64,000 nt of DNA from Spirochaetia bacterium (GTDB lineage: Bacteria > Spirochaetota > Spirochaetia > SZUA-6 > Bin103), in NCBI GenBank assembly GCA_965208575.1, contig CBDBOV010000005.1, positions 192,001-256,000 on the forward strand. Direction: 5' to 3'. This document shows, piece by piece, positions 1,751 through 53,124 of this stretch (positions are counted from its first letter, which is position 1; every line of letters starts with the position of its first letter). The position numbers and the translations under genes were made by a program. A model generated the notes under the pieces. The model had not been told where the DNA came from. It saw only the letters and a list, made by a program, of their open reading frames with translations, and made no database searches.

Positions 1751-3535
1751 TTAATAACCCATTTCTTTCTTCAGATCACTATCAATCCAGAGGCGGGCGA
1801 AGAGGAGATTAAAACCGAGAGGGTCCAAGCCTGTGTCCATTTCACCGTTATAGCCTATGAGCCACGGCTGGGCCAAATAATACACTGCAGGTTTACCGCC
1901 CCATATCTGCCAGTGCTTCTCTATCATGTACATATCTGCCTCTGCAATCAGCCTCTGCTGCTCCTCAATGGTAGTAGCGTTTAGGGCGGCGTCAACCATG
2001 GCGTCCACCTCAGGCCACCGGGATCCGGGGCGGTTCCACACTGCATCCGAGTGAAACCAGCCTACCATCATGACAGGGTCATAAAGATTGCCCATATTGG
2101 TTTGGTGCAAGCCTTCCCAAGTACGCGAGAATACCCTCTCGTTATGTACGTCATAGGGAACTGCATCAATCTCAACATCGACGCCAATCTCTGCCCACTG
2201 GGAGACAATTATTTCAGTAATGTCCGTATTTCCAACCGAGACATTCACGGAGGTCTTAAATCTAGTGCCGTCGGCGCCGCGCGGGTATCCAGCCTCATCA
2301 AGGAGCTTCTCGGCAGCTTCCGGGTCATAGGTATAGTATTGCTTGACCTCGTCGGGCCACTCATCAAACGGGATGTAATACCCTTTCACCCCTATTAGCC
2401 CGTGAGGTGTAGTATCTGCATAACCCCTCCAGTACGTAGCCTTAATGGGCTCAAGGTCCAGTGCCATCTGCATTGCGCGGCGCACGTTGATGTCGTCAAA
2501 GGGCGGCACGCCCAAGGTAGGAGCAAAAGAACTACCCGACCGAAACCAAACCGGCCATGCCGCGATTTCGGGGTTGGTCCGCTGCAGGCTCAGTACCGAT
2601 GCCAATTGGTTCTCGACCCACCGTCTGTAATCAATCTTGCCTGTCCGCATCGCTGACATGATTGTTGCTTCCTCTGGAATCATCAGTCCCCTTAACTTGT
2701 CAACGTAGGGCAGGCGGTTCTGCGGGTATTTTTCGTCGTAGCCCCAGTAGTCAGGATTCTTGGTCCAGGTCGCAGAGCTGTCCGCGACGTAGTCAGTCAG
2801 CTCAAAGGGCCCGGTGCCGACCACGTTCCTCCAGTCCTTCATGTCACCGTATTGCTCGATTACCTCGGGGGGGGATATGTAAATAAAGTAGTCGACGAGC
2901 ATAAGCCGCAGCGCAGGGAGGTATGGCTTCGTCAGCTTAACGACCATCGTATGCTTGTCGGTGGCCGTTACCGATTCCCATGGTATGGAGACGAATGGGG
3001 CGGCGCCACCCACGGGGGAAGGTCCGGCGTCGGCAAACTTGCCCATACCCAATAGACGGTGAAAGTTGTATTCGACATCATCGGCAGTGAGCTCCCGACC
3101 GTTCATCGGTGCCTTATTATGCCAGTGAACGCCCTGGCGGATGTGGAAGGTATAGGTGCGCCCGTCCGGGGAAATATCCCAGCTTTCCGCCAGTTGCTCT
3201 ATCATGACCGACTCAGGGGTCGGGCCCGATTTAAAGTCCCATACGTCCCTATCTATTCCCCAGTTCCCGATACCTAGCTTCTCTACGACGCCCGAGATTA
3301 TCCCGCCCGAATAGTGGTAATAGGGGTCTGCCGCCTGTGGCGAATATGGGTGTAAGTGCAAGGTTAATGTCCCGCCATACTGTGGCGCAACCACCATCTT
3401 GCCGGTGGTCGGGTCGAGCACCATTTCCTTCTCCACGGCGGCTGCCGGCTCCTCTTCTGCGCCCGCGGCCCAGAGGCCGGTGGCAGTCAGGGTCAGGACC
3501 AACGCAACCGCGAAGGTCTTTATCACAATGTTCAT
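1751..3535 (-). CDS. ABC substrate-binding protein, family 5 (Dpp/Opp/Nik)
   Basis: Signal peptide MNIVIKTFAVALVLTLTATGLWA; motifs PQYGGTL, LAESW, VGTGPF, VRRAMQMALD, LLDEAGY; GGAG SD before ATG 3535. Confidence 0.93.
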   Translation of the reverse strand: MNIVIKTFAVALVLTLTATGLWAAGAEEEPAAAVEKEMVLDPTTGKMVVAPQYGGTLTLHLHPYSPQAADPYYHYSGGIISGVVEKLGIGNWGIDRDVWDFKSGPTPESVMIEQLAESWDISPDGRTYTFHIRQGVHWHNKAPMNGRELTADDVEYNFHRLLGMGKFADAGPSPVGGAAPFVSIPWESVTATDKHTMVVKLTKPYLPALRLMLVDYFIYISPPEVIEQYGDMKDWRNVVGTGPFELTDYVADSSATWTKNPDYWGYDEKYPQNRLPYVDKLRGLMIPEEATIMSAMRTGKIDYRRWVENQLASVLSLQRTNPEIAAWPVWFRSGSSFAPTLGVPPFDDINVRRAMQMALDLEPIKATYWRGYADTTPHGLIGVKGYYIPFDEWPDEVKQYYTYDPEAAEKLLDEAGYPRGADGTRFKTSVNVSVGNTDITEIIVSQWAEIGVDVEIDAVPYDVHNERVFSRTWEGLHQTNMGNLYDPVMMVGWFHSDAVWNRPGSRWPEVDAMVDAALNATTIEEQQRLIAEADMYMIEKHWQIWGGKPAVYYLAQPWLIGYNGEMDTGLDPLGFNLLFARLWIDSDLKKEMGY

Positions 3536-3539
3536 AACT

Positions 3540-3985
3540 ATCTCCAGGATGATTGATTTCGAGAGTCTTGCGGAGCGGGTTGCCGCTCCCCGGATCCTCT
3601 CGCGCCCGCAACGCGGGCGGCCGGTGTGAGTCAGATTCCTGCAGCGTGCGGCGTGTGACTCACCGGGTTCACCCGGGCTCACGCCGCGCGCGCGTGAGGT
3701 TCTTTGAGTATCATTCGAGCCTCCTTCTTCTCGTTACAACGCGACGCGTTGCGGTGGTCTGAGCAGCAGCGAGTCTGAATGGCCGGCAACGCTGGGGGTG
3801 TCGCCGGCGGGGATCCGGGACGGCCTGAGTCGCCGGGAAGGGCACGGGCGGCCCGGCGATCGACCGAGCCCGCGCCACCGATAGCTACGGCGGTGGTGAA
3901 GGCGACCGCGTGCGCGGGGTCGCGTACGGGGCGATCAGCCGGAGCGGTTAGTTGTTCTCGGTTCGAAAGTTGAGGGGGGGCGAGG
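3540..3985 (-). ncRNA. Candidate structured cis-regulatory leader RNA (copy 1)
   Basis: Homologous to 28592-28985 with compensatory changes in several stems. Confidence 0.65.
3679..3714 (-). CDS. Putative leader peptide MILKEPHARAA (copy 1)
   Basis: AAGGAGG-5 nt-ATG; identical peptide at 28822-28857. Confidence 0.6.
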   Translation of the reverse strand: MILKEPHARAA

Positions 3986-4077
3986 ATAGGACGCGCCGGC
4001 TGCGTTGCCGCTAACCGATGGCAGTGCTGAGTGGTATTATCACCCATCTTTTGCATCCGTTGAACCCTGAGGTTTTC

Positions 4078-4107
4078 AACCTAACACACCTGCGGCAAAC
4101 ACGTCAA
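4078..4107 (-). promoter_or_regulatory. Putative sigma70-type promoter of the leader/SBP operon
   Basis: TTGACG-18 nt-TAGGTT with extended TG; inverted repeat GTTGAA...TTCAAC overlapping the -10/start region. Confidence 0.45.
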
Positions 4108-8036: not shown

Positions 8037-9803
8037 CTACGGCTTCAGGCTGCTATCGAACCACAGGCGCGTGAAGATGGTGGAGTGGCCGTTTTCCGAG
8101 ATCGACCCCTCGCCGTTGTATCCCACAACCCACGGCTGAGTCACGGAGAACTGCGGCCCCACCGGCCCGAACACGTGCCAGAACTGCTCGATCCCGTACA
8201 TATCCAATTCGCCGAGCGCCGCGTCCCGCTCCTCCAGCGTGCTCGCCGCAAGGGCCTCGGCAAACTTGGCGTTGTACCACTCGTCATCGGCATTGGCACT
8301 GTTCCATGACGTCGATGGGATGAAACGCTTCACCGGATTGACCGGGGGTCCCTTGAAAGCCGCTTCCGCGTTGATCATCTGAAAGGCTCGATCTTGTCTT
8401 CTGGCCACGAACTCAGCCAGTGGCTGCACGTTGGCCTCTACCTTGACGCCAATGGCGTCCCAGTAACTGATCAGGAGCTCGGTGTAGTTCAGATCGTAGC
8501 GCTCGAGGTGCATGAACTCGGTCTCGAATCTGACGCCATCATCGCCGCGTGGATAGCCCGCCTCGTCGAGCAGAGCCTCGGCACCGGCCGGGTCATACTC
8601 GAACGCCTCCTTGACGTCCGCCGGCCACTCAGCGAACGGGGTCGCCACGGTCGCAGTGAGGCGGCTCACCGCCCCCTGGGGGATGGTATCCGCGAAGCCT
8701 CTATAGAATCCCTGGTTGATCTCCTCGAGGTTGAGGGCCATCTGCATCGCCTTGCGTACCCGGATGTCGCCAAAGGGCTCAACCTGGATGTTCAGGCCGA
8801 CCCCATTGTCAGACCGTCCCGCAATCGGATAGACCTTCAGTTCAGGATTGGTGCGCTGCAGGCTCTCCAACTGGTCGATACTCCGCAACGTGGTAGCGCC
8901 ACCTGCTGCACCTATGTAGTCGAGCTGACCGGTGCGCAGCGCCGAGATGTACGTTGTCGTCTCGGGCATGACCAGCGCGCGTAGCTGGTCGAAATAGGGC
9001 AGGCGGTTGTCCGGGAACTTCTCGTCGAAGCCCCAGTAGTCGGGATTCTTGTCCCAGGTGACCGAGCTGCCCTTGGTCCAGTCGGTGAGGGCATAGGGGC
9101 CGGTGCCGACCAGGTCCCGCCAGTCATCGGCGTCCCCCTTGGCCTGGATTACCTCGGGGGCGTAGATGAAGTTGAGGGTGCCTTGGAGGATCGCATGAAG
9201 AGCAGAGAGGCTTGGCGCTGCCAGCTTGATGGCGACCGTCGCGCTGTCGGTCGCCGTTACCGACTCGACCTCGATGCCACCCCAAAACCCGGCATGCTCG
9301 CTGCGCTCGGTGAAGCCGCTGCCGAGGCCCAATACGCGGTGGTAGTTGAATGCGATATCCTCTGCGGTCAAGGCGCGACCGTTCATCGGTGTCTTGTCCT
9401 GCCAGCTAACGCCCTGGCGGATGTTGAGCACGTACATGAGCGGGTCCGGCTGCGACCAGCTCTCAGCCAGGTGCCCGACCGTGTGCGTCGGCGGGTTGGG
9501 CATCACAAAGTCGAACTCATCTCTTGGCGTTGCCCAGTCCTGGATGGTCGGCATTTCGACTACGACGTTGACGATTGACCCTCCCCAAACACCGGAGACC
9601 ACGACGTCGGTGCTCGCCGGCTCTTCCTTGAGTGCATAGGTGAACGTGCCGCCGTACTCCGGCGCGCTGATCATTTCGCCGGTGGTGGGGTCGAGCACCA
9701 TCTCATTCTCGGCCGCGGCCGCCTCCTCACCGGCGGGGGCGGCGAACGTAACGGTAGCCACCAGCGCGAACGCTAGCGGCAGCACCATGAGTCTGGGAGT
9801 CAT
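8037..9803 (-). CDS. ABC substrate-binding protein, family 5
   Basis: GAGGAGGAG SD, signal peptide MTPRLMVLPLAFALVA, APEYGG, LVGTGPY, VRKAMQMAL. Confidence 0.93.
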   Translation of the reverse strand: MTPRLMVLPLAFALVATVTFAAPAGEEAAAAENEMVLDPTTGEMISAPEYGGTFTYALKEEPASTDVVVSGVWGGSIVNVVVEMPTIQDWATPRDEFDFVMPNPPTHTVGHLAESWSQPDPLMYVLNIRQGVSWQDKTPMNGRALTAEDIAFNYHRVLGLGSGFTERSEHAGFWGGIEVESVTATDSATVAIKLAAPSLSALHAILQGTLNFIYAPEVIQAKGDADDWRDLVGTGPYALTDWTKGSSVTWDKNPDYWGFDEKFPDNRLPYFDQLRALVMPETTTYISALRTGQLDYIGAAGGATTLRSIDQLESLQRTNPELKVYPIAGRSDNGVGLNIQVEPFGDIRVRKAMQMALNLEEINQGFYRGFADTIPQGAVSRLTATVATPFAEWPADVKEAFEYDPAGAEALLDEAGYPRGDDGVRFETEFMHLERYDLNYTELLISYWDAIGVKVEANVQPLAEFVARRQDRAFQMINAEAAFKGPPVNPVKRFIPSTSWNSANADDEWYNAKFAEALAASTLEERDAALGELDMYGIEQFWHVFGPVGPQFSVTQPWVVGYNGEGSISENGHSTIFTRLWFDSSLKP

Positions 9804-10172
9804 AGCGTACTCCTCCTCGTTCTCGGGATCGGGACTGCGTCCCGTTGCCCGTGGTCCTCTTGGGCCGAAGACTTTGGCCTTCTCGCATAGTCGTGGTAAT
9901 CGTCGCACCAAGAGCGGGAGACAGCGCCGCGAGCGCCGGTTTCCGCGAGCGTGGTGCGATGGGTGTGGATGGCGAAGGGAGCCGCTACGTCGTCAGCGGT
10001 GCAGATGGCGACAGAGTGGCGGATGTGGCTCGGCGAGCGTAGAGAGCGGTCAGTTACCGGGTGCTTGGTTTGTTGTGGAGCAGGCCGGAGCAGGCCGGAG
10101 CGCTAGCGTTCGCGGCTAACGGGTGGCTGCGGTGGGCTGTGTGATCGCGCTTCATCCGCGTACCAAGCCGCC

Positions 10173-28591: not shown

Positions 28592-28985
28592 CCCCCCGCC
28601 CCCCCCCCCGCAACTCTTTATACGAGAAACAACTAACCGCTTGGGCTGATCGCGCCCTACGCGAGCCCGCGCACACTGTCACCTTCACCACCGCCGTGAC
28701 TATCGGTGGCGCCGGCTCGGTCGATCGCCAGACCTCCCGCCAGGAGAAACCCACCGCCGGCATTGCCGGCCATTCAAACTCGCCGCTTCGCCGGCCACCG
28801 CCCCGCGTGGCGGAGGTGAGGATGATACTCAAAGAACCGCACGCGCGCGCGGCGTGAGCCCGTGAGTCACACGCCGCGCGCTTCACAAATTGACTCAGAC
28901 TGGCCGTCCGCGTTGCGGGCGTCAGAGTAGCCAGGGAGCGCCAATGCGCTACGCAATACTCTCAAAATCTACATACGGAGCTACT
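28592..28985 (+). ncRNA. Candidate structured cis-regulatory leader RNA (copy 2)
   Basis: Homologous to 3540-3985 (minus) with compensatory changes. Confidence 0.65.
28822..28857 (+). CDS. Putative leader peptide MILKEPHARAA (copy 2)
   Basis: GGAGG-5 nt-ATG; one synonymous difference from copy 1. Confidence 0.6.
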   Translation: MILKEPHARAA

Positions 28986-30809
28986 ATGGATATGAACATT
29001 GTAGTAATTCGAATGGCCCTTGGGGTTGCGTTGGTCTTGGTCTTGACCGCAACCGGCCTCTGGGCCGCCGGTGCAGAGGACAGCGCCGAGCCGGCAGCAG
29101 CCGCTGCCGACAGAGAGACGGTGTTCGACCCCGCCAGCGGCCTGACGTGGACCGCGCCAGAGTATGGCGGGTCACTCTCGTGGGCCCACAAGCAGTTTCC
29201 CAAGAGTACTGACCCGCACGTGGTCGGTGGCTGGGGGCCGCACTTCATCAGTGGCGTCAATGAGAAGCTGGCCTACGGCGACTGGGCAGTATCCAGGGAC
29301 AAGGTGGTTGAACTAGCCTGGACGTATTCGGGCCCGGAGATGTACAGAGGGGCTCTGGCTGAAAGCTGGGAATTCCCCGACGCCACAACCGTCATCTTCC
29401 ACATCCGCCAGGGCGTCCACTGGCATGACAAGGCGCCGATGAACGGTCGCGAGCTGACTGCCGATGATGTGGTATTCAACTGGCACCGCTATTTGGGCCT
29501 GGGCGAGTTCGCCGAAGCGGGACCTTCCGCCCTGGGATACATGACTCACGGTCTCGAGGAAGCATCGGTGACGGCCACCGACAAGTGGACGGTCGAGTTC
29601 AAGCTGGCGAGGCCCAAACCCGATATCGAGTTTGCAGTGACCCACAATGCAAACTATATATTGGCCCCCGAGGTAATCAAGGAACACGGAGACTATGCGG
29701 ATTGGCGGAACGTGGTCGGCACCGGGCCCTATCGACTGACCGATCACGTCGAGGACACCTCGGCAACCTGGGAGAAGAATCCCGACTACTGGGGCTACGA
29801 CGAAAAATTTCCGGACAACCGCTTGCCCTATATTGACACCTTGAAGTCCCTCCTTATAGCAGACACGTCAGCACGTCTGGCGGCAATGCGCACGGGCAAG
29901 ATTGACATGATAAGTAACACCGGAGACGCTCATATATCCAATATCGAGCATATAGAGAGCCTCCAGAATACCAATCCTGAAATCGAAGCCTGGCCCGTTT
30001 ATCGCCCTCCATTGGGCACTTATATGTTTGACCAGTCTCAGGCGGTGATACAGGATGTCAATGTGCGCAAGGCGCTGCAGCTATCGCAGGACCGCGAGAC
30101 AATTTCGGCTACCTTCTTCAAGGGTTGGGGAGAGCCAGCACCTAACGGGTTCATAAGCCAAGCTTCTACAGGGTTTAGCTGGCCATATGAAGACTGGCCC
30201 GAAGACGTAAAGCGTGAGTATGAGTATGACCCGGAAAGGGCGGAAGCGTTGCTTGATGCGGCTGGATATCCACGCGGCGACGACGGCTATAGATTCACGA
30301 TCAAGGTAGGCCATTTCGGGAGGTACGAATCGGACTATACAGAAATCATCATGGGGTACTTCGACGCCATTGGCGTAAAAAGCGAGATGGTTGTGGTTAC
30401 TGACCCTGAGCTGCAACCCATCATCCAGGCGGACACGTCCGAGTTCGCGTTGATTAGCTGGGTGGGATATCCGCTAACGGCCCCCAACACGTATGTCTAC
30501 TATATAAGCAACTTCGACTATGGTGGGGTTGACTGGAGCAGGGCGAAGGATCCGGAAATGGACGCCCTGCTGGCCGGCATGAAAAATGCCACCGAACCGG
30601 ACGAGTGGAAGAAATATCACCGACAGATCGATGAGAAAACGGTACGGGAGCACTGGGGCCTGGTGCGAGCCAACTCCCCGATATTTGCCGTGAGCCAGCC
30701 GTGGGTCGAGGGTTATGCCGGTGAATGGAGCCTGGGATACTCTGAACGTAATACCCACTTTGCCCGCCTCTGGATCGATAGTGCGCTGAAGGAGTCAATG
30801 GGTCATTAG
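28986..30809 (+). CDS. ABC substrate-binding protein, family 5
   Basis: GGAG SD, signal peptide ...TATGLWA, APEYGG, VVGTGPY, ARLWIDS. Confidence 0.93.
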   Translation: MDMNIVVIRMALGVALVLVLTATGLWAAGAEDSAEPAAAAADRETVFDPASGLTWTAPEYGGSLSWAHKQFPKSTDPHVVGGWGPHFISGVNEKLAYGDWAVSRDKVVELAWTYSGPEMYRGALAESWEFPDATTVIFHIRQGVHWHDKAPMNGRELTADDVVFNWHRYLGLGEFAEAGPSALGYMTHGLEEASVTATDKWTVEFKLARPKPDIEFAVTHNANYILAPEVIKEHGDYADWRNVVGTGPYRLTDHVEDTSATWEKNPDYWGYDEKFPDNRLPYIDTLKSLLIADTSARLAAMRTGKIDMISNTGDAHISNIEHIESLQNTNPEIEAWPVYRPPLGTYMFDQSQAVIQDVNVRKALQLSQDRETISATFFKGWGEPAPNGFISQASTGFSWPYEDWPEDVKREYEYDPERAEALLDAAGYPRGDDGYRFTIKVGHFGRYESDYTEIIMGYFDAIGVKSEMVVVTDPELQPIIQADTSEFALISWVGYPLTAPNTYVYYISNFDYGGVDWSRAKDPEMDALLAGMKNATEPDEWKKYHRQIDEKTVREHWGLVRANSPIFAVSQPWVEGYAGEWSLGYSERNTHFARLWIDSALKESMGH

Positions 30810-30904: not shown

Positions 30905-31915
30905 ATCAGAGCCTACCTTATCCGGCGATTGTTGCTGATATTCCCCACCCTGTTCATATTGAGCATCGTAGTCTTTCTCTCGGTCCGCTTCATCCCCGGT
31001 GATGTAATAGACGTAATGGTGGCCCAGATGGGAGGATGGTGGGCCGTGGGTGGCGACATAGACCGCGAAGCTCTCGAGCGCAGGCTGGGATTGGACGTGC
31101 CTGTGTACGTACAGTACGGACGCTGGATAGGAGTGTTGCCAACCCCTGACTGGATTACCGGTGAGTCCCACTTTGAAGGTCTCCTCCAGGGCACCCTTGG
31201 CGAACCACTGATTGGCGGTTTCTCTACGATAGACGAGATGATAGTAAGCAGATTGCCGGTAACCATTGAACTTGGCGTCATGGCAATCGTAATCGGGCTG
31301 GTGATAGCCCTGCCGGTCGGCATCTACTCGGCGATTCGCCAGGATACGGCGACCGACTACGTAGGCCGCACCGTCGCCGTAATCGGCCTGGCAACGCCAA
31401 ACTTCTGGCTGGGAATCATGGTCATGCTCTACCCGGCAATCTGGTGGGGCTGGTCGCCGTCGATGGAATATATCCCGCTTGGCGAAGATCCGCTGGGGAA
31501 TCTGGGGATGACCATCATTCCTGCGGTGATTCTGGGAACGGGGATGTCTGCAGCCACCATGCGGATGACGCGCACGATGATGTTGGAGGAGCTCAGGCAG
31601 GACTACGTCAGGACGGCATGGTCCAAGGGTATCAAGGAAAGGGTGATCGTGATCAGACACGTCATCAAGAATGCATTCATCCCGATTCTCACCCTGATAG
31701 GCCTGCAGTTCCCGCTCCTGATAGGTGGCGCCGTCATCATGGAGAACATCTTCAACCTTCCGGGGATAGGCCGTCTGTTCATGGATGCCCTCGAAGGAAG
31801 AGACTACCCGGTAGTGTCCGCAATAAACCTGGTCTTTGCTACCATAGTCATGCTTAGCATTGTACTTATCGACATGATCTATCCCTATGTGGATCCCAGG
31901 ATCCGCTACCAGTGA
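30905..31915 (+). CDS. Dpp/Opp ABC permease, DppB family; probable ATC start
   Basis: GAGGAG-6 nt-ATC AGA GCC TAC CTT ATC CGG CGA (xRAYLIRR); EAA motif; DPRIRY. Confidence 0.9.
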   Translation: MRAYLIRRLLLIFPTLFILSIVVFLSVRFIPGDVIDVMVAQMGGWWAVGGDIDREALERRLGLDVPVYVQYGRWIGVLPTPDWITGESHFEGLLQGTLGEPLIGGFSTIDEMIVSRLPVTIELGVMAIVIGLVIALPVGIYSAIRQDTATDYVGRTVAVIGLATPNFWLGIMVMLYPAIWWGWSPSMEYIPLGEDPLGNLGMTIIPAVILGTGMSAATMRMTRTMMLEELRQDYVRTAWSKGIKERVIVIRHVIKNAFIPILTLIGLQFPLLIGGAVIMENIFNLPGIGRLFMDALEGRDYPVVSAINLVFATIVMLSIVLIDMIYPYVDPRIRYQ

Positions 31916-32883
31916 TGCCACCGGTACGCACCGCGAGAGTGAGTGGGCCCAGGAGCAGTGGCGCGGTGGCTGTTTTCTTTATCAGGCTGTGGCGCGAGAA
32001 GCCACTGGGTATGGCCAGCGGAATTGTCATATTGATAGTGCTGTTTGTGGCTGTATTCGCGGGTCAATTGGCCCCATACAAGTTTGCCGAGATGAACCTG
32101 ATAGACAGGATGCAGGGCTCATCGTTCCGGCATCCGATGGGTACCGACCAGATGGGACGAGACGTTCTCAGCCGCGTCATATTCGGGGCACGTGTTTCGG
32201 TACTGGTCGGTCTGGCAGTGACCACGCTCAGTGTATTGATCAGTACGCTGGTAGGCGGCATTTCAGGATTCGTTGGTGGTAGATTCGACATCATAGTGCA
32301 GAGAGTTGTCGATGCCTGGATGTGTTTCCCGGGGCTGCTCCTGTTGTTGACCTTGATGTCCATAGTGGGGAAGGGTGTACCGCAGATAATACTGGTGCTC
32401 GGCATAGCAGGGGGTATCGGCGGATCAAGAGTGATCCGAGGCGCCGTCATGAGCATTAAGGAGAATGTGTATTTTCAGACGGCGGAGGCTATTGGAAGCA
32501 AAAAATGGCGATCATTGGTGCGCCATGTCTTGCCCAATATCATGCCTGCGGTAATCATATCATTCAGCACCAGCATAGGGGGCGTAATCATATCCTTGGC
32601 TGCTCTGGGCTTCCTCGGATACGGTCTGCCTCCCACGCTTCCTGACTGGGGAGGTCTGCTCAGCAGGGAAGGACGGGTCTACATGGAGCAGGCGCCATGG
32701 CTGGCTCTCTGGCCCGGTCTTTGTCTGACGGTAACCGTTTACAGTCTGAACATGTTCGGCGACGCGGCACGTGATCTGCTTGATCCGAGGCTGAAGGGCG
32801 GCGCCGGGCAATCCGGTGCCTATGGCACGAAGTCGGTCAAGAAAGCCAGCAAGGAACTGGACGCCGGGATCACGCCGAGGTGA
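31912..32883 (+). CDS. Dpp/Opp ABC permease, DppC family
   Basis: MGTDQMGRD, HVLPNI, GDAARDLLDPR. Confidence 0.92.
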   Translation: MMPPVRTARVSGPRSSGAVAVFFIRLWREKPLGMASGIVILIVLFVAVFAGQLAPYKFAEMNLIDRMQGSSFRHPMGTDQMGRDVLSRVIFGARVSVLVGLAVTTLSVLISTLVGGISGFVGGRFDIIVQRVVDAWMCFPGLLLLLTLMSIVGKGVPQIILVLGIAGGIGGSRVIRGAVMSIKENVYFQTAEAIGSKKWRSLVRHVLPNIMPAVIISFSTSIGGVIISLAALGFLGYGLPPTLPDWGGLLSREGRVYMEQAPWLALWPGLCLTVTVYSLNMFGDAARDLLDPRLKGGAGQSGAYGTKSVKKASKELDAGITPR

Positions 32884-46151: not shown

Positions 46152-46202
46152 GCACGAGAGCGCGCCGCTCGTTCAAGGTGACCTGTCGTTTCCGACGCAG
46201 AG

Positions 46203-46232
46203 TTGACTTGAGTTGCGGAGTCGTGATACGGT
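46203..46232 (+). promoter_or_regulatory. Putative promoter (duplicated at 52836-52865)
   Basis: TTGACT-18 nt-TACGGT with extended TG. Confidence 0.5.
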
Positions 46233-46291
46233 CGGAATCGGACGCAGGTCTCGACGCCCGCCGAGCGGTCGCGGGTCACCCGGCGCACAGG

Positions 46292-46355
46292 AGGAACCGG
46301 GTGCCACCCAAGAAGGAACCGGGTGCCACCCAAGAAGGAACGGGATGCCACCCCA
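46292..46355 (+). repeat. 22-bp tandem repeat in the SBP leader
   Basis: AGGAACCGGGTGCCACCCAAGA x2 plus a degenerate third unit; single unit in the paralogous leader. Confidence 0.9.
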
Positions 46356-46534
46356 GACCGGATACGACTGACAGGAACCCGGCAGCCAACGCCGCTCGCG
46401 TGGAGTCACCGCGCCGGCTCGAAGGCGAACGTGCCGCCCTCGCTTTCCGTAACCTGCGACCTGCAGGAATGCCTCGAGAGACGGCGAGGGGTCGGCACTG
46501 AATTACGTGCTCTCGAGGAACAGGAGACACATTC

Positions 46535-48352
46535 ATGTGCTACGCAACACTCAAGAAGTACCTGGCGGTACTGATTGGCTTCGCTGTGGCCGCGACCGGC
46601 CTGTCGGCCGCTCCCGCGGAAGAGGAGCCGGCAGCGGCGATGGAAAAGGAGATGGTGCTCGATCCGACGACCGGCAAGATGGTGACCGCGCCAGAGTATG
46701 GCGGGACATTGACCCAGGCCGCTGGCAGAGATCAGAAGGTTTTTGACACTTATTTGGCGTGGTCGCCGTTTCAAGTTAGCAGTGCCGTCGTGGAGAAGCT
46801 CGGCATCGTGGACTGGGGACTAAGTAGGGACGAATTTCACTTTAGGGGTGGCTACCCGGCGCCTCTATTCGCCCTGAAGGGGGCGCTGGCTGAAAGCTGG
46901 AATATGTCCCCGGACAGGCTCACCTATACCTTCAACATCCGCCAGGGCGTTCACTGGCATGATAAGCCGCCGGTGAACGGGCGGGAGCTAACTGCCAAGG
47001 ATGTAGAACATTCCTTTCACCGCTTCTTGGGAAATAGGTTGACAGGGACCGAGTTCAGTGAAGCCGAACCTGCCGTAACAGCAGGTGAGCTCGGCACAGT
47101 GCCATTCGAGTCGATAACGGCCACCGACGAATATACCGTAGTTTTCACGCTGAAGGAGCCCTACCTTCGTACCCCGAACATGATTCTGGACTGGCATACC
47201 ATCGTCATATATCCTCCCGAGGTAATCGAGGAAGACGGTGACGCTTCCAATTGGAGGAACCTGGTCGGCACCGGACCGTTTGAGCTGACTGACTATGTCG
47301 AAAGCGTCTCTATCACCTATACCAAGAATCCTGACTACTGGGGCTACGACGAGAAGTTCCCGGACAACCGCCTGCCGTACGTCGACGAGTTCAGGGTCCT
47401 GTTCATGGCGGAGGAAGCAACCCGTCTGGCGGCACTACGCTCCCGTAAAATTGATTACAGTGGTTACCACGGCGCCGGCACCATGATAAAATCTATCGAT
47501 GTGGCAGAGAGTCTCAAGAGAACCAATCCCGAGCTGGTGCTGAACGAGTATTCGGAACGGGCGGACAATGGTTTTATTTTCAACGTGAGTGAGCCGCCCT
47601 TTGACGACATCCGGGTGCGAAAGGCCATGAACATGGCACTGGACCACGAAACCATTAACAATACCTACTTCAAGGGTTATGGAGATATAACGCCCAGGGG
47701 GCAAATAGGGATGCCAGGTTTCCACGTCCCGTTTGACGAGTGGCCTCAGGAGGTCAAGGATGCCTATAGCTATAACCCTGAAGGGGCCGAGAAGCTGCTT
47801 GATGAAGCTGGCTATCCGCGCGGCGCCGACGGCATTCGATTCAAGACCGACGCAAAATTTCGTGACACCGAGGATGTTGGTTGGGTAGAAGCGGTCGCAG
47901 CCTACTGGAGTGAGATTGGCGTCGATGTGAGGCTCGATCCTCGGCCAGCTGATGCAGCATGGAACGCATGGTGGGCAGATCCTGAAAGGGAACAAGGGTT
48001 AGTCCACTACGCGTTCGGTGCGTTGTCTGATTCATACGATGCGATGTTGAGATTTACTCCGGCATTTCAATATAACCCAGCTAAATCCGACGACCCGGTG
48101 TTTAATGCGTTGTTCGAGAGAGCCAAGACCGCTACCACCTTTGAGGATCAGAGGGAGCCGATTCTGGAGATGGACATGTACTTCAAGAAGAGTGTCTGGG
48201 GTGTTCCCGGTCCTGAGGTTCCACAATTCAATGTCACCCAGCCGTGGGTCAAAGGGTACAACTCGGAAGGTGGCCTGGGGGGTTTGCAATGGTACGCCGT
48301 TTTCGCCCGCCTCTGGATTGACCAGGATTTGAAGAAAGAAATGGGTTTTTGA
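46535..48352 (+). CDS. ABC substrate-binding protein, family 5 (paralogue B)
   Basis: AGGAG SD, signal peptide, APEYGG, LVGTGPF, WIDQDLKKEMGF. Confidence 0.93.
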   Translation: MCYATLKKYLAVLIGFAVAATGLSAAPAEEEPAAAMEKEMVLDPTTGKMVTAPEYGGTLTQAAGRDQKVFDTYLAWSPFQVSSAVVEKLGIVDWGLSRDEFHFRGGYPAPLFALKGALAESWNMSPDRLTYTFNIRQGVHWHDKPPVNGRELTAKDVEHSFHRFLGNRLTGTEFSEAEPAVTAGELGTVPFESITATDEYTVVFTLKEPYLRTPNMILDWHTIVIYPPEVIEEDGDASNWRNLVGTGPFELTDYVESVSITYTKNPDYWGYDEKFPDNRLPYVDEFRVLFMAEEATRLAALRSRKIDYSGYHGAGTMIKSIDVAESLKRTNPELVLNEYSERADNGFIFNVSEPPFDDIRVRKAMNMALDHETINNTYFKGYGDITPRGQIGMPGFHVPFDEWPQEVKDAYSYNPEGAEKLLDEAGYPRGADGIRFKTDAKFRDTEDVGWVEAVAAYWSEIGVDVRLDPRPADAAWNAWWADPEREQGLVHYAFGALSDSYDAMLRFTPAFQYNPAKSDDPVFNALFERAKTATTFEDQREPILEMDMYFKKSVWGVPGPEVPQFNVTQPWVKGYNSEGGLGGLQWYAVFARLWIDQDLKKEMGF

Positions 48353-52757: not shown

Positions 52758-53124
52758 AATCTACCTCAGTATTATTTCGGTGCCGCCGAAGAGCGCGCCG
52801 CTCGTTCAAGGTGACCCGTCGTTTCCGACGCAGAGTTGACTTGAGTTGCGGAGCCGTGATACGGTCGGAATCGGACGCGGGTCTCGACGCCCGCCGAGCG
52901 GTCGCGGTTCACCCGGCGCACAGGAGGAACGGGATGCCACCCCAGACCGGAGTACGACTGACAGGAACCCGGCAGCCAACGCCGCTTGCGTCGAGTCACC
53001 GTGCCGGCTCGAAGGCGAACGTGCCGCCCTCGCTTTCCGTAACCTGCGACCTGCAGGAATGCCTCGAGACAAGGCGAGGGGTCGGCACTGAATTACGTGC
53101 TCTCGAGGAACAGGAGACACATTC

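Follow-up and report, generated by a model that had tools for sequence, protein, structure and literature searches.

The leader and its two copies in the window

The stretch of DNA analysed here, called the window throughout, comprises 64,000 nucleotides (nt) of a genome deposited as Spirochaetia bacterium (assembly GCA_965208575.1, contig CBDBOV010000005.1, positions 192,001 to 256,000 of the forward strand). It contains two copies, A and B, of a leader that lies directly upstream of genes for SBP_bac_5 binding proteins of about 600 residues (Pfam E-values 4.7e-69 and 1.1e-64). Reading of the sequence reveals in both leaders the same upstream open reading frame (uORF) of 11 codons plus TGA, which encodes MILKEPHARAA. 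A preliminary description of the window had reported these two frames, each with a GGAGG Shine-Dalgarno (SD) sequence and 5-nt spacers CTCGA and TGAGG, and they were read exactly so; the sole difference between the frames, CCT versus CCG at codon 6, is synonymous. The 36-nt uORF pattern with up to two mismatches occurs at exactly two sites in the window and at none in 100 shuffles.

Features of copy A and its operon:
3724-3720, minus strand: SD sequence GGAGG of uORF A, with the 5-nt spacer CTCGA before ATG
3714-3679, minus strand: uORF A, 11 codons plus TGA, MILKEPHARAA; coding-type variation across copies
3644..3691, minus strand: helix P1 with its loop; 5' arm 3691-3680 (uORF codons 8-11 and the TG of the stop), 3' arm 3655-3644; predicted from RNAalifold and pair counts
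3678-3663, minus strand: predicted inner hairpin P1a
3662-3656, minus strand: 5' strand of the predicted pairing PK1, TGAGTCA
3633-3627, minus strand: 3' strand of PK1, TGACTCA
3560..3624, minus strand: predicted pseudoknot domain; P2 5' 3624-3620, P3 hairpin 3619-3603, P5 5' 3602-3595, P2 3' 3594-3590, P4 hairpin 3589-3572, P5 3' 3567-3560
3545-3542 and 3535-1751, minus strand: SD sequence and SBP_bac_5 gene A (Pfam)
1616-642 and 645-1, minus strand: two Opp-type permease genes after gene A (Pfam)

Features of copy B and its operon:
28812-28816, plus strand: SD sequence GGAGG of uORF B, with the spacer TGAGG before ATG
28822-28857, plus strand: uORF B, MILKEPHARAA, stop codon TGA
28845..28881, plus strand: P1; 5' arm 28845-28856, 3' arm 28870-28881; P1a deleted
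28863-28869, plus strand: 5' strand of PK1 in the loop, TGAGTCA
28891-28897, plus strand: 3' strand of PK1, TGACTCA
28900..28964, plus strand: predicted pseudoknot domain; P2 5' 28900-28904, P3 28905-28921, P5 5' 28922-28929, P2 3' 28930-28934, P4 28935-28952, P5 3' 28957-28964
28986..30809, plus strand: SBP_bac_5 gene B (Pfam)
30929-31915 and 31912-32883, plus strand: two Opp-type permease genes after gene B (Pfam)

The last 12 nt up to and including the TG of the uORF stop are complementary to a stretch 24-36 nt downstream. The resulting stem, P1, had been described as 12 bp long in both copies; it is present in both and has 12 bp in copy B, but in copy A it has 11 bp and one C/A mismatch. 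The two copies are similar over a long region, which begins about 260 nt before the uORF and runs up to where the downstream gene starts, with 82% mean column identity over 408 columns; according to the sequence reads the similarity reaches still further upstream than this alignment. This similarity of about 400 nt, the approximately 62 genomic copies described below and a second, pseudoknotted domain between the stem and the transporter gene all go beyond the preliminary description.

A longer ORF of 125 codons (3679-4056, minus strand) shares the frame and the stop codon of uORF A. It was judged to be a spurious product of the GC-rich sequence, because its counterpart in copy B has only 53 codons and the indels between A and B are not multiples of three. 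It has no Pfam match.

Copy number and distribution of the leader

The leader module is about 170 nt long and is present in about 62 copies in its own genome (6.5 Mb, 67% GC). A blastn search of this genome with a 191-nt module gave 61 matches, and a covariance model built from 40 leader copies (R1) gave 73, of which 62 score at least 32.8 bits and lie on the sense strand; the other 11 are mostly the near-palindromic P1 read antisense on copies already counted. In 60 of the 61 blastn copies the module is followed, at a fixed short distance and in one orientation, by a long ORF of the same binding-protein family, and in one copy it is not. The family of these ORFs was judged by the N-terminal signal anchor and the start of the mature protein, and Pfam was run for the two window genes. 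A dispersed repeat of the REP (repetitive extragenic palindrome) or MITE (miniature inverted-repeat transposable element) kind was ruled out on these grounds: 60 of 61 copies stand in one orientation directly upstream of a binding-protein ORF, and the only antisense model hits are the P1 helices of counted copies.

The leader heads roughly half of the SBP_bac_5 genes of the genome, for which at least 133 matches were counted (133 of 219 candidates scored). We note that for a 6.5-Mb genome such a number amounts to an extreme expansion of binding proteins of the oligopeptide type, and that the window contains five of them.

Among 41 genomes (the own genome and 40 relatives) R1 matches were found in 8, all of them in one genus, g1. 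The positive relatives are 7 of the 10 other species of g1, and there were no matches in the 13 genomes of the sister genus or in the 17 from other families of the order. The 7 other species have at least 43, 33, 69, 35, 5, 2 and 1 copies respectively, values that are lower bounds, as at most 69 candidates were scored per genome. In public records the leader was found at 2 of 40 loci encoding related binding proteins, both from one 7.0-Mb record. The other 38 loci (29-68% identity, other Dehalococcoidia records) gave no R1 match, and the upstream regions of 11 of them, inspected by eye, are unrelated to the leader. The closest public record that bears the leader, OZ253572.1 (L091 / L099), is titled 'Spirochaetia bacterium' and the other relatives are titled Dehalococcoidia, which is probably an inconsistency of labelling.

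The leaders are better conserved than the proteins encoded behind them. The binding-protein paralogs have a median amino acid identity of 47% (1712 pairs), and the 40 best leaders a median nucleotide identity of 77% (780 pairs, gaps counted as mismatches). A neutral non-coding region would not be expected to align at all at 47% protein identity. The closest relative of leader A is the leader of its ortholog in another species (88.2%), and its paralogs are slightly lower (85-87%); this points to a floor set by constraint rather than to homogenisation within the genome. As a separate observation, the signal anchor and the first mature residues of about 60 binding proteins are far more conserved than the rest of these proteins, so that constraint or conversion appears to reach from the leader into the first approximately 50 codons of the genes.

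In principle, the leader could be a functionless by-product of repeated DNA, spread by gene conversion of paralogous 5' ends or as a mobile repeat. The regions upstream of the module are indeed mosaics of other repeated modules, the adjoining signal-anchor coding region is unusually conserved, and the element is restricted to one genus, all of which would fit such an origin. Nevertheless, we consider it very improbable, given that the leader always stands at the same place and in the same orientation with respect to its gene, that the helices show compensatory changes and the uORF shows codon-phase variation (see below), that leader A has not been homogenised with its paralogs in the genome, and that the element persists across species in front of paralogs as distant as stated above.

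Conservation of the predicted RNA fold

The first domain of the predicted fold consists of P1, a 12-bp GC helix whose 5' arm begins with the last base of codon 8, takes in codons 9-11 and ends with the TG of the stop codon. A small inner hairpin, P1a, is variable in length and is absent from copy B and several others. A heptamer in the P1 loop pairs with a heptamer about 25 nt past P1 (PK1). In the second domain the order of elements is P2 5', P3 hairpin, P5 5', P2 3', P4 hairpin and P5 3'; here P2 crosses P5, i.e. the two form an H-type pseudoknot that carries the hairpins P3 and P4. This domain ends 20-30 nt before the ribosome-binding site (RBS) of the transporter gene, whose SD sequence lies behind an A-rich linker.

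RNAalifold alone finds P1, P2, P3 and P4. In a MAFFT alignment of 40 copies 89.2% of the cells of the proposed pairs are paired, as compared to 30-51% when the partners are slid, and 17 pairs are changed on both sides, as compared to 8.2 +/- 1.8 in shuffled alignments (0 of 500 shuffles reach 17). When 98 copies from 8 genomes were aligned to the model, the paired cells made up 91.3%, versus 32-53% with slid partners, and there were 31 double-change pairs versus 12.5 +/- 2.2 in shuffles (0 of 500 reach 31). Two properties of these counts detract from their force: for P1, P1a, P3, P4 and P5 the 98-copy alignment follows the model to which it was fitted, so that its pair counts lean to that structure, and the paralogs and orthologs are not independent while all counts are of sequences, so that the shuffle control overstates the significance.

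P1 is paired in 96.8% of cases across the 98 copies. Compensatory changes are present in P2, P3, P4 and P5. P2 and PK1, which lie outside the model, are paired at 93% and 80-92% respectively, with few double changes. The complementary heptamers TGAGTCA and TGACTCA, already noted in the preliminary description, are indeed present in both window copies, and PK1 is conserved; its compensatory evidence consists of very few events, among them UA to GC at one pair in 3 sequences, which limits the support for PK1. Some of the unpaired nucleotides of the leader are also highly conserved.

No Rfam 15 family matched anywhere in the window at gathering thresholds. With E-values up to 10 over 3480-4100, Rfam gave only two hits at chance level (E 3 and E 5.1), of which one is antisense and neither covers the core of the element. 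Taken together, the covarying, pseudoknotted leader is a new structured RNA family with good support. Even the most cautious reading of our data leaves this much standing, and the family is fit for inclusion in RNA family databases.

A further hairpin, around the transporter start codon, has 59.6% of its cells paired and no claim is made for it. We also note that the leader is modular. Three copies of the own genome (C6:140816, C6:963930 and C3:713554) keep the uORF, P1, PK1 and P3 and are then followed directly by the gene, and three others (C6:43919, C6:791733 and C4:396235) keep only the P2-P5 pseudoknot domain.

Variability of the uORF

The start column of the uORF was compared across the 98 aligned copies. 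ATG, GTG or TTG is found in 80 of them, and the 94 rows free of gaps have ATG (60), GTG (13), TTG (4), CTG (4) or other triplets. The 80 copies with a canonical start have a frame of 11 codons in 63 cases, and 65 stop at a common column inside the 5' arm of P1. Six others stop at the TGA of the loop heptamer and four have a premature TAG at codon 7. In three related copies TAA replaces TGA at the usual place, i.e. the stop is kept while the end of the helix is weakened.

The distribution of changes within the codons is of the coding type. In codons 4, 5 and 6 the third positions deviate from the consensus in 13%, 21% and 19% of the distinct sequences respectively, and the first two positions in 0-3%; two copies outside the anchor used for these counts have E to G and P to S replacements. 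Frame and synonymous conservation in related genomes, which the preliminary description had proposed as a check, came out in favour of a coding frame: in the unbiased model alignment, 58 of 113 off-consensus codons 2-6 are synonymous in frame (51%), as opposed to 4 of 82 (5%) and 12 of 78 (15%) in the other frames. The consensus peptide is x-L-K-E-P-x-x-R-A-A, in which L-K-E-P is kept and residues 2, 7 and 8 vary freely. As had been stated for the two window copies, there is no run of a single amino acid, apart from the Ala codons dictated by the helix. In a divergent subfamily P1 has another sequence, and the frame there encodes x-x-L/R-K-E-P-x-H-A-R-G with its stop codon in the P1 loop; passage of the frame through the P1 5' arm is thus a rule that outlasts a change of sequence.

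An SD sequence is present upstream of the uORF at proper spacing, and the first five codons have 34% GC in a genome of 67% GC; such an AT-rich start would be expected of a real initiation region. Two observations stand in the way of a simple coding interpretation. Firstly, 18 of the 98 copies have no canonical start and most of these keep the RNA, a pattern that the preliminary description had itself named as contradicting a translated frame; it applies to this minority, which includes 4 copies with CTG and some with an in-frame GTG two codons upstream, and 80 of 98 keep the start. Secondly, codon 2 ends in A in 97% of cases and some synonymous sites are nearly fixed, hence constraint at the RNA level also acts inside the uORF. 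On balance, we consider it likely that the uORF is translated in most copies.

The leader could alternatively be an RNA-only element, for instance an aptamer, a platform for proteins or small RNAs or a nuclease-resistant stabiliser formed by P1/PK1 and P2-P5, in which the frame is incidental or weakly translated. The covariation of the fold and the highly conserved unpaired nucleotides are what one would expect of such an element, the copies without a canonical start and the nearly invariant synonymous sites fit it as well, and the copies with only P2-P5 or only uORF-P1-PK1-P3 (three of each) indicate that the modules are separable. We still regard this explanation as unlikely. It does not account for the in-frame excess of synonymous changes, for a start column of the N-T-G form that varies among A, G and T behind a properly spaced SD sequence, for the stop retained as TAA where TGA has mutated, or for the AT-rich initiation region, and no riboswitch or other Rfam family matched even at E-values up to 10.

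If the uORF is translated, the 11-residue peptide might itself be the product and act in trans from many loci. Among the 80 copies that have a canonical start, 25 encode precisely MILKEPHARAA, and these come from at least 7 species, which fits such a role. The peptide is, however, very short, its C-terminal half is dictated by the P1 arm and its residues 2, 7 and 8 vary freely; moreover, it always stands in cis to members of one gene family. A function in trans therefore seems hardly credible.

Readthrough of the UGA codon with incorporation of selenocysteine, as directed by a bacterial selenocysteine insertion sequence (SECIS), was rejected. No reading frame is kept past UGA, since copy B lacks 11 nt just after the stop as compared to A and P1a is absent or variable in length in many copies.

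A proposed mechanism of translation-coupled control

The overlap between frame and helix suggests how the two parts of the leader might work together. The reading that we favour, with some reservation, is a new family of translation-coupled cis-regulatory leaders, in which translation of the uORF steers the fold of the pseudoknot domain and hence the translation or stability of the operon mRNA. As the 5' arm of P1 is formed by the last uORF codons and the stop, P1 must melt for the uORF to be completed; a ribosome that completes it would have to unwind all 12 pairs. The terminating ribosome would then hold the 3' arm of P1 unpaired and, in copies without P1a, the PK1 strand as well. Occupancy of the uORF may thus set the downstream RNA fold and, through it, translation or stability of the transporter mRNA. 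The effect on expression, including its direction, is conjectural. The whole set of operons would come under one translation-linked signal.

Occupancy might be lengthened if the LKEP peptide caused the ribosome to pause at the UGA stop. At termination, the L-K-E-P residues would sit 5-8 residues from the catalytic (peptidyl-transferase) centre. Granted the coupling, that these residues programme such a pause is a tentative suggestion at best. Since about 60 transporters share the leader, a transported substrate cannot be the signal, which must be of a global kind, be it the capacity for translation, a shared metabolite or a compound directed at the ribosome. The most far-reaching version, in which the LKEP chain renders termination at UGA sensitive to a small molecule or to the state of the translation machinery and the pause at P1 reprogrammes the double pseudoknot, thereby setting at least 60 uptake operons as a regulon-wide ribosome sensor, is a speculation to which we give little credence. 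We know of no peptide-plus-pseudoknot switch described with a regulon this large.

Several results weigh against the coupling. The preliminary description had spoken of competing helices, and of PK1 as a pseudoknot or an alternative fold. P1 and PK1 are compatible as a pseudoknot, but folds and duplex scans revealed no conserved, mutually exclusive helix, and competing helices were therefore not retained. Five copies were folded to minimum free energy, both as they are and with the ribosome footprint masked, and showed no consistent refolding. In the duplex scans the best alternative partner of both P1 arms is the GC-rich P3 region at the P3/P5 junction; the freed arm has a mean energy of -14.8 kcal/mol there, without covariation. 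Moreover, P1 neither contains nor touches the SD sequence of the transporter gene, which is about 100-115 nt downstream. There is also no U tract after P1 (mean 3.0 T in the next 10 nt; longest T run 1-2 in 87 of 98 copies). Lastly, the RNA contigs that cover the locus (see below) are assemblies, which cannot show ends, strand or ribosome occupancy. The earlier proposal of a translation-coupled sensor is thus upheld in part: the frame is under peptide selection and overlaps P1, but P1 does not hold the transporter RBS as in the ermC designs that had been cited for it.

Two other candidates were dropped in the course of this analysis. Pairing of uORF codons 2-3 with the 5' arm of P5 was abandoned, as copies with a changed codon 3 show no matching change. 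P1 as a canonical intrinsic terminator was rejected for the missing U tract, and on the sense strand a consensus scan gave no terminator.

The uORF and its SD sequence could also serve a constitutive purpose, i.e. load ribosomes or stabilise the 5' end and so raise the output of binding protein, with P1 opened and nothing sensed. One leader stands before about 60 transporters of presumably different substrates and so is not substrate-specific, and the SD sequence is strong and the start region AT-rich. In transporter operons of this kind the binding-protein gene is normally the most highly expressed, which is also in keeping with such a device. Selection on the L-K-E-P residues and the elaborate double-pseudoknot RNA downstream would be left unexplained, and we hold this possibility to be rather improbable.

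Comparison with known leaders

A number of known systems resemble the leader in part. tnaC likewise has a short leader frame in which the peptide sequence matters. As proposed for the present leader, a ribosome sits at the UGA codon and, by covering the RNA immediately beyond it, governs what becomes of the message downstream. In tnaC this involves Rho and a block of release that depends on free tryptophan. The present leader gives no evidence of Rho sites and has no known ligand; its peptide is half the length of TnaC, and its stop codon is embedded in a 12-bp helix with pseudoknots behind it.

In the ermC, ermB, cat and cmlA leaders a frame of 8-20 codons overlaps a helix arm and a peptide-specific pause remodels the RNA. 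The overlap of frame and helix is shared by the present leader, for which the pause is conjectured. The remodelled helix of these systems hides the RBS of a resistance gene a few nt away and the signal is a ribosome-binding drug, whereas here about 100-115 nt, with a separate pseudoknot domain among them, lie before the main RBS, and the genes are those of about 60 nutrient transporters. With the nascent-peptide arrest leaders in general (tnaC, ermCL, cat/cmlA, speFL, mgtL) our leader shares a frame conserved at the amino acid level. As to the overlap typical of them, the uORF ends in the 5' arm of P1 in 65 of 80 copies, P1 excludes the transporter SD sequence, and no link from P1 to that sequence was found in folds or duplex scans.

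The trp, his, phe, ilv and pyrBI attenuators also couple a translated leader frame to RNA helices, and in pyrBI a ribosome reading into a hairpin prevents its formation. A short leader frame with its own SD sequence and start that is apparently translated, as in trpL or hisL, is present here. The classical attenuators differ in having a run of regulatory codons, of which the peptide has none beside the helix-dictated Ala codons, a U tract, which is missing after P1, and a terminator/antiterminator pair, which is likewise missing.

Finally, the orphan motifs and riboswitches of Rfam that precede transporter genes are similar in being conserved, covarying, pseudoknotted 5' leaders with many copies before one class of genes. 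The conserved structured core with covariation is a trait of the riboswitch type. Unlike them, the present leader has a conserved, apparently translated frame, is confined to one genus and has no match in Rfam 15. A ligand cannot be inferred from the genes, because these belong to about 60 different binding-protein operons. We would therefore not assign the leader to the tnaC, erm/cat/cmlA or classical attenuator families; it appears to be their kin by design, as a case of leader-peptide-coupled RNA control. A full-text literature search returned no description of this leader in the portions of text that it covers.

The host lineage is a genus of abundant, uncultured, sponge-associated Chloroflexota (Dehalococcoidia). 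Sponge Chloroflexi encode many ABC (ATP-binding cassette) transporters, according to a published account (PMC6306507). If the coupling is real, a very large share of the genes for nutrient uptake would be coordinated by a single small frame and a single RNA fold, a global mode of control that is not described for ABC transporters. The approximately 60-70 natural variants per genome, in at least 8 species, are unusually rich material on how a nascent peptide and a pseudoknot may cooperate, and the leader can be tested without cultivating the organism.

Upstream region and expression

The region upstream of the module in copy A contains the following features:
4079..4107, minus strand: promoter-like site, TTGACG, 17-nt spacer, TTAGGT; predicted from the sequence read
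3727..3980, minus strand: conserved upstream leader modules, with a C7 tract at 3980-3974 and 'module 1' at 3731-3900; from the alignment with copy B

The promoter-like site would place the start of transcription of copy A near 4071, so that the predicted 5' untranslated region (UTR) is about 535 nt long and the uORF begins about 355 nt into it. A stricter consensus promoter scan did not call the site at 4107-4079. Sites of the TTGAC-N17 type are also found upstream of other leader copies. Module 1 gives 24 blastn hits in the genome. We also note C tracts in the upstream modules, C7 at 3974-3980 (minus strand) in A and C6 plus C11 at 28592-28609 (plus strand) in B; paralogous leaders have C tracts of other lengths, which could be prone to slippage.

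Eleven RNA-labelled runs hold part of the stretch, some of them labelled as sponge metagenome. In 4 metatranscriptome runs, which belong to 3 studies, contigs extend over the gene, the pseudoknot domain and the uORF and on through the upstream modules as far as about 4022. Among them, a 179-nt contig spans 3486-3664 and another one 3689-3901; the gap between 3664 and 3689 carries no meaning. There is no RNA contig at 4124-4224 and almost nothing beyond, and this silent flank argues against plain carry-over of DNA. The end of the contigs near 4022 is a weak hint of the start of the transcript.

Other leaders in the genome

A second, different conserved leader is found at 46180-46534 and 52790-53124 (both plus strand), before the SBP genes that start at 46535 and 53125. 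It contains a TTGACT promoter-like site and another small frame. In common with the present module it has the CCGGCGCACAGGAGG context, an SD sequence with a small upstream frame, and an SBP_bac_5 gene that comes next. The second leader differs in having tandem repeats of variable copy number in or near the small frame, whereas the present module is free of repeats and its fixed frame of 11 codons is tied to a helix. The leader at 46180-46534 has two extra 22-nt tandem units (approximately 46293-46336) that are absent from 52790-53124, and its small frame is altered.

A 10-nt tandem repeat, GCTCCGGCCT, of about 2.5 units is located at 10079-10103 (minus strand) in the leader of the SBP gene at 8037-9911 (minus strand). 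A similar module with a repeat of the 10-nt type lies upstream of the copy of the present leader at G000:C5:126289-126475. As different leaders share repeat modules, those of this genome may well be patchworks put together from several regulatory modules.

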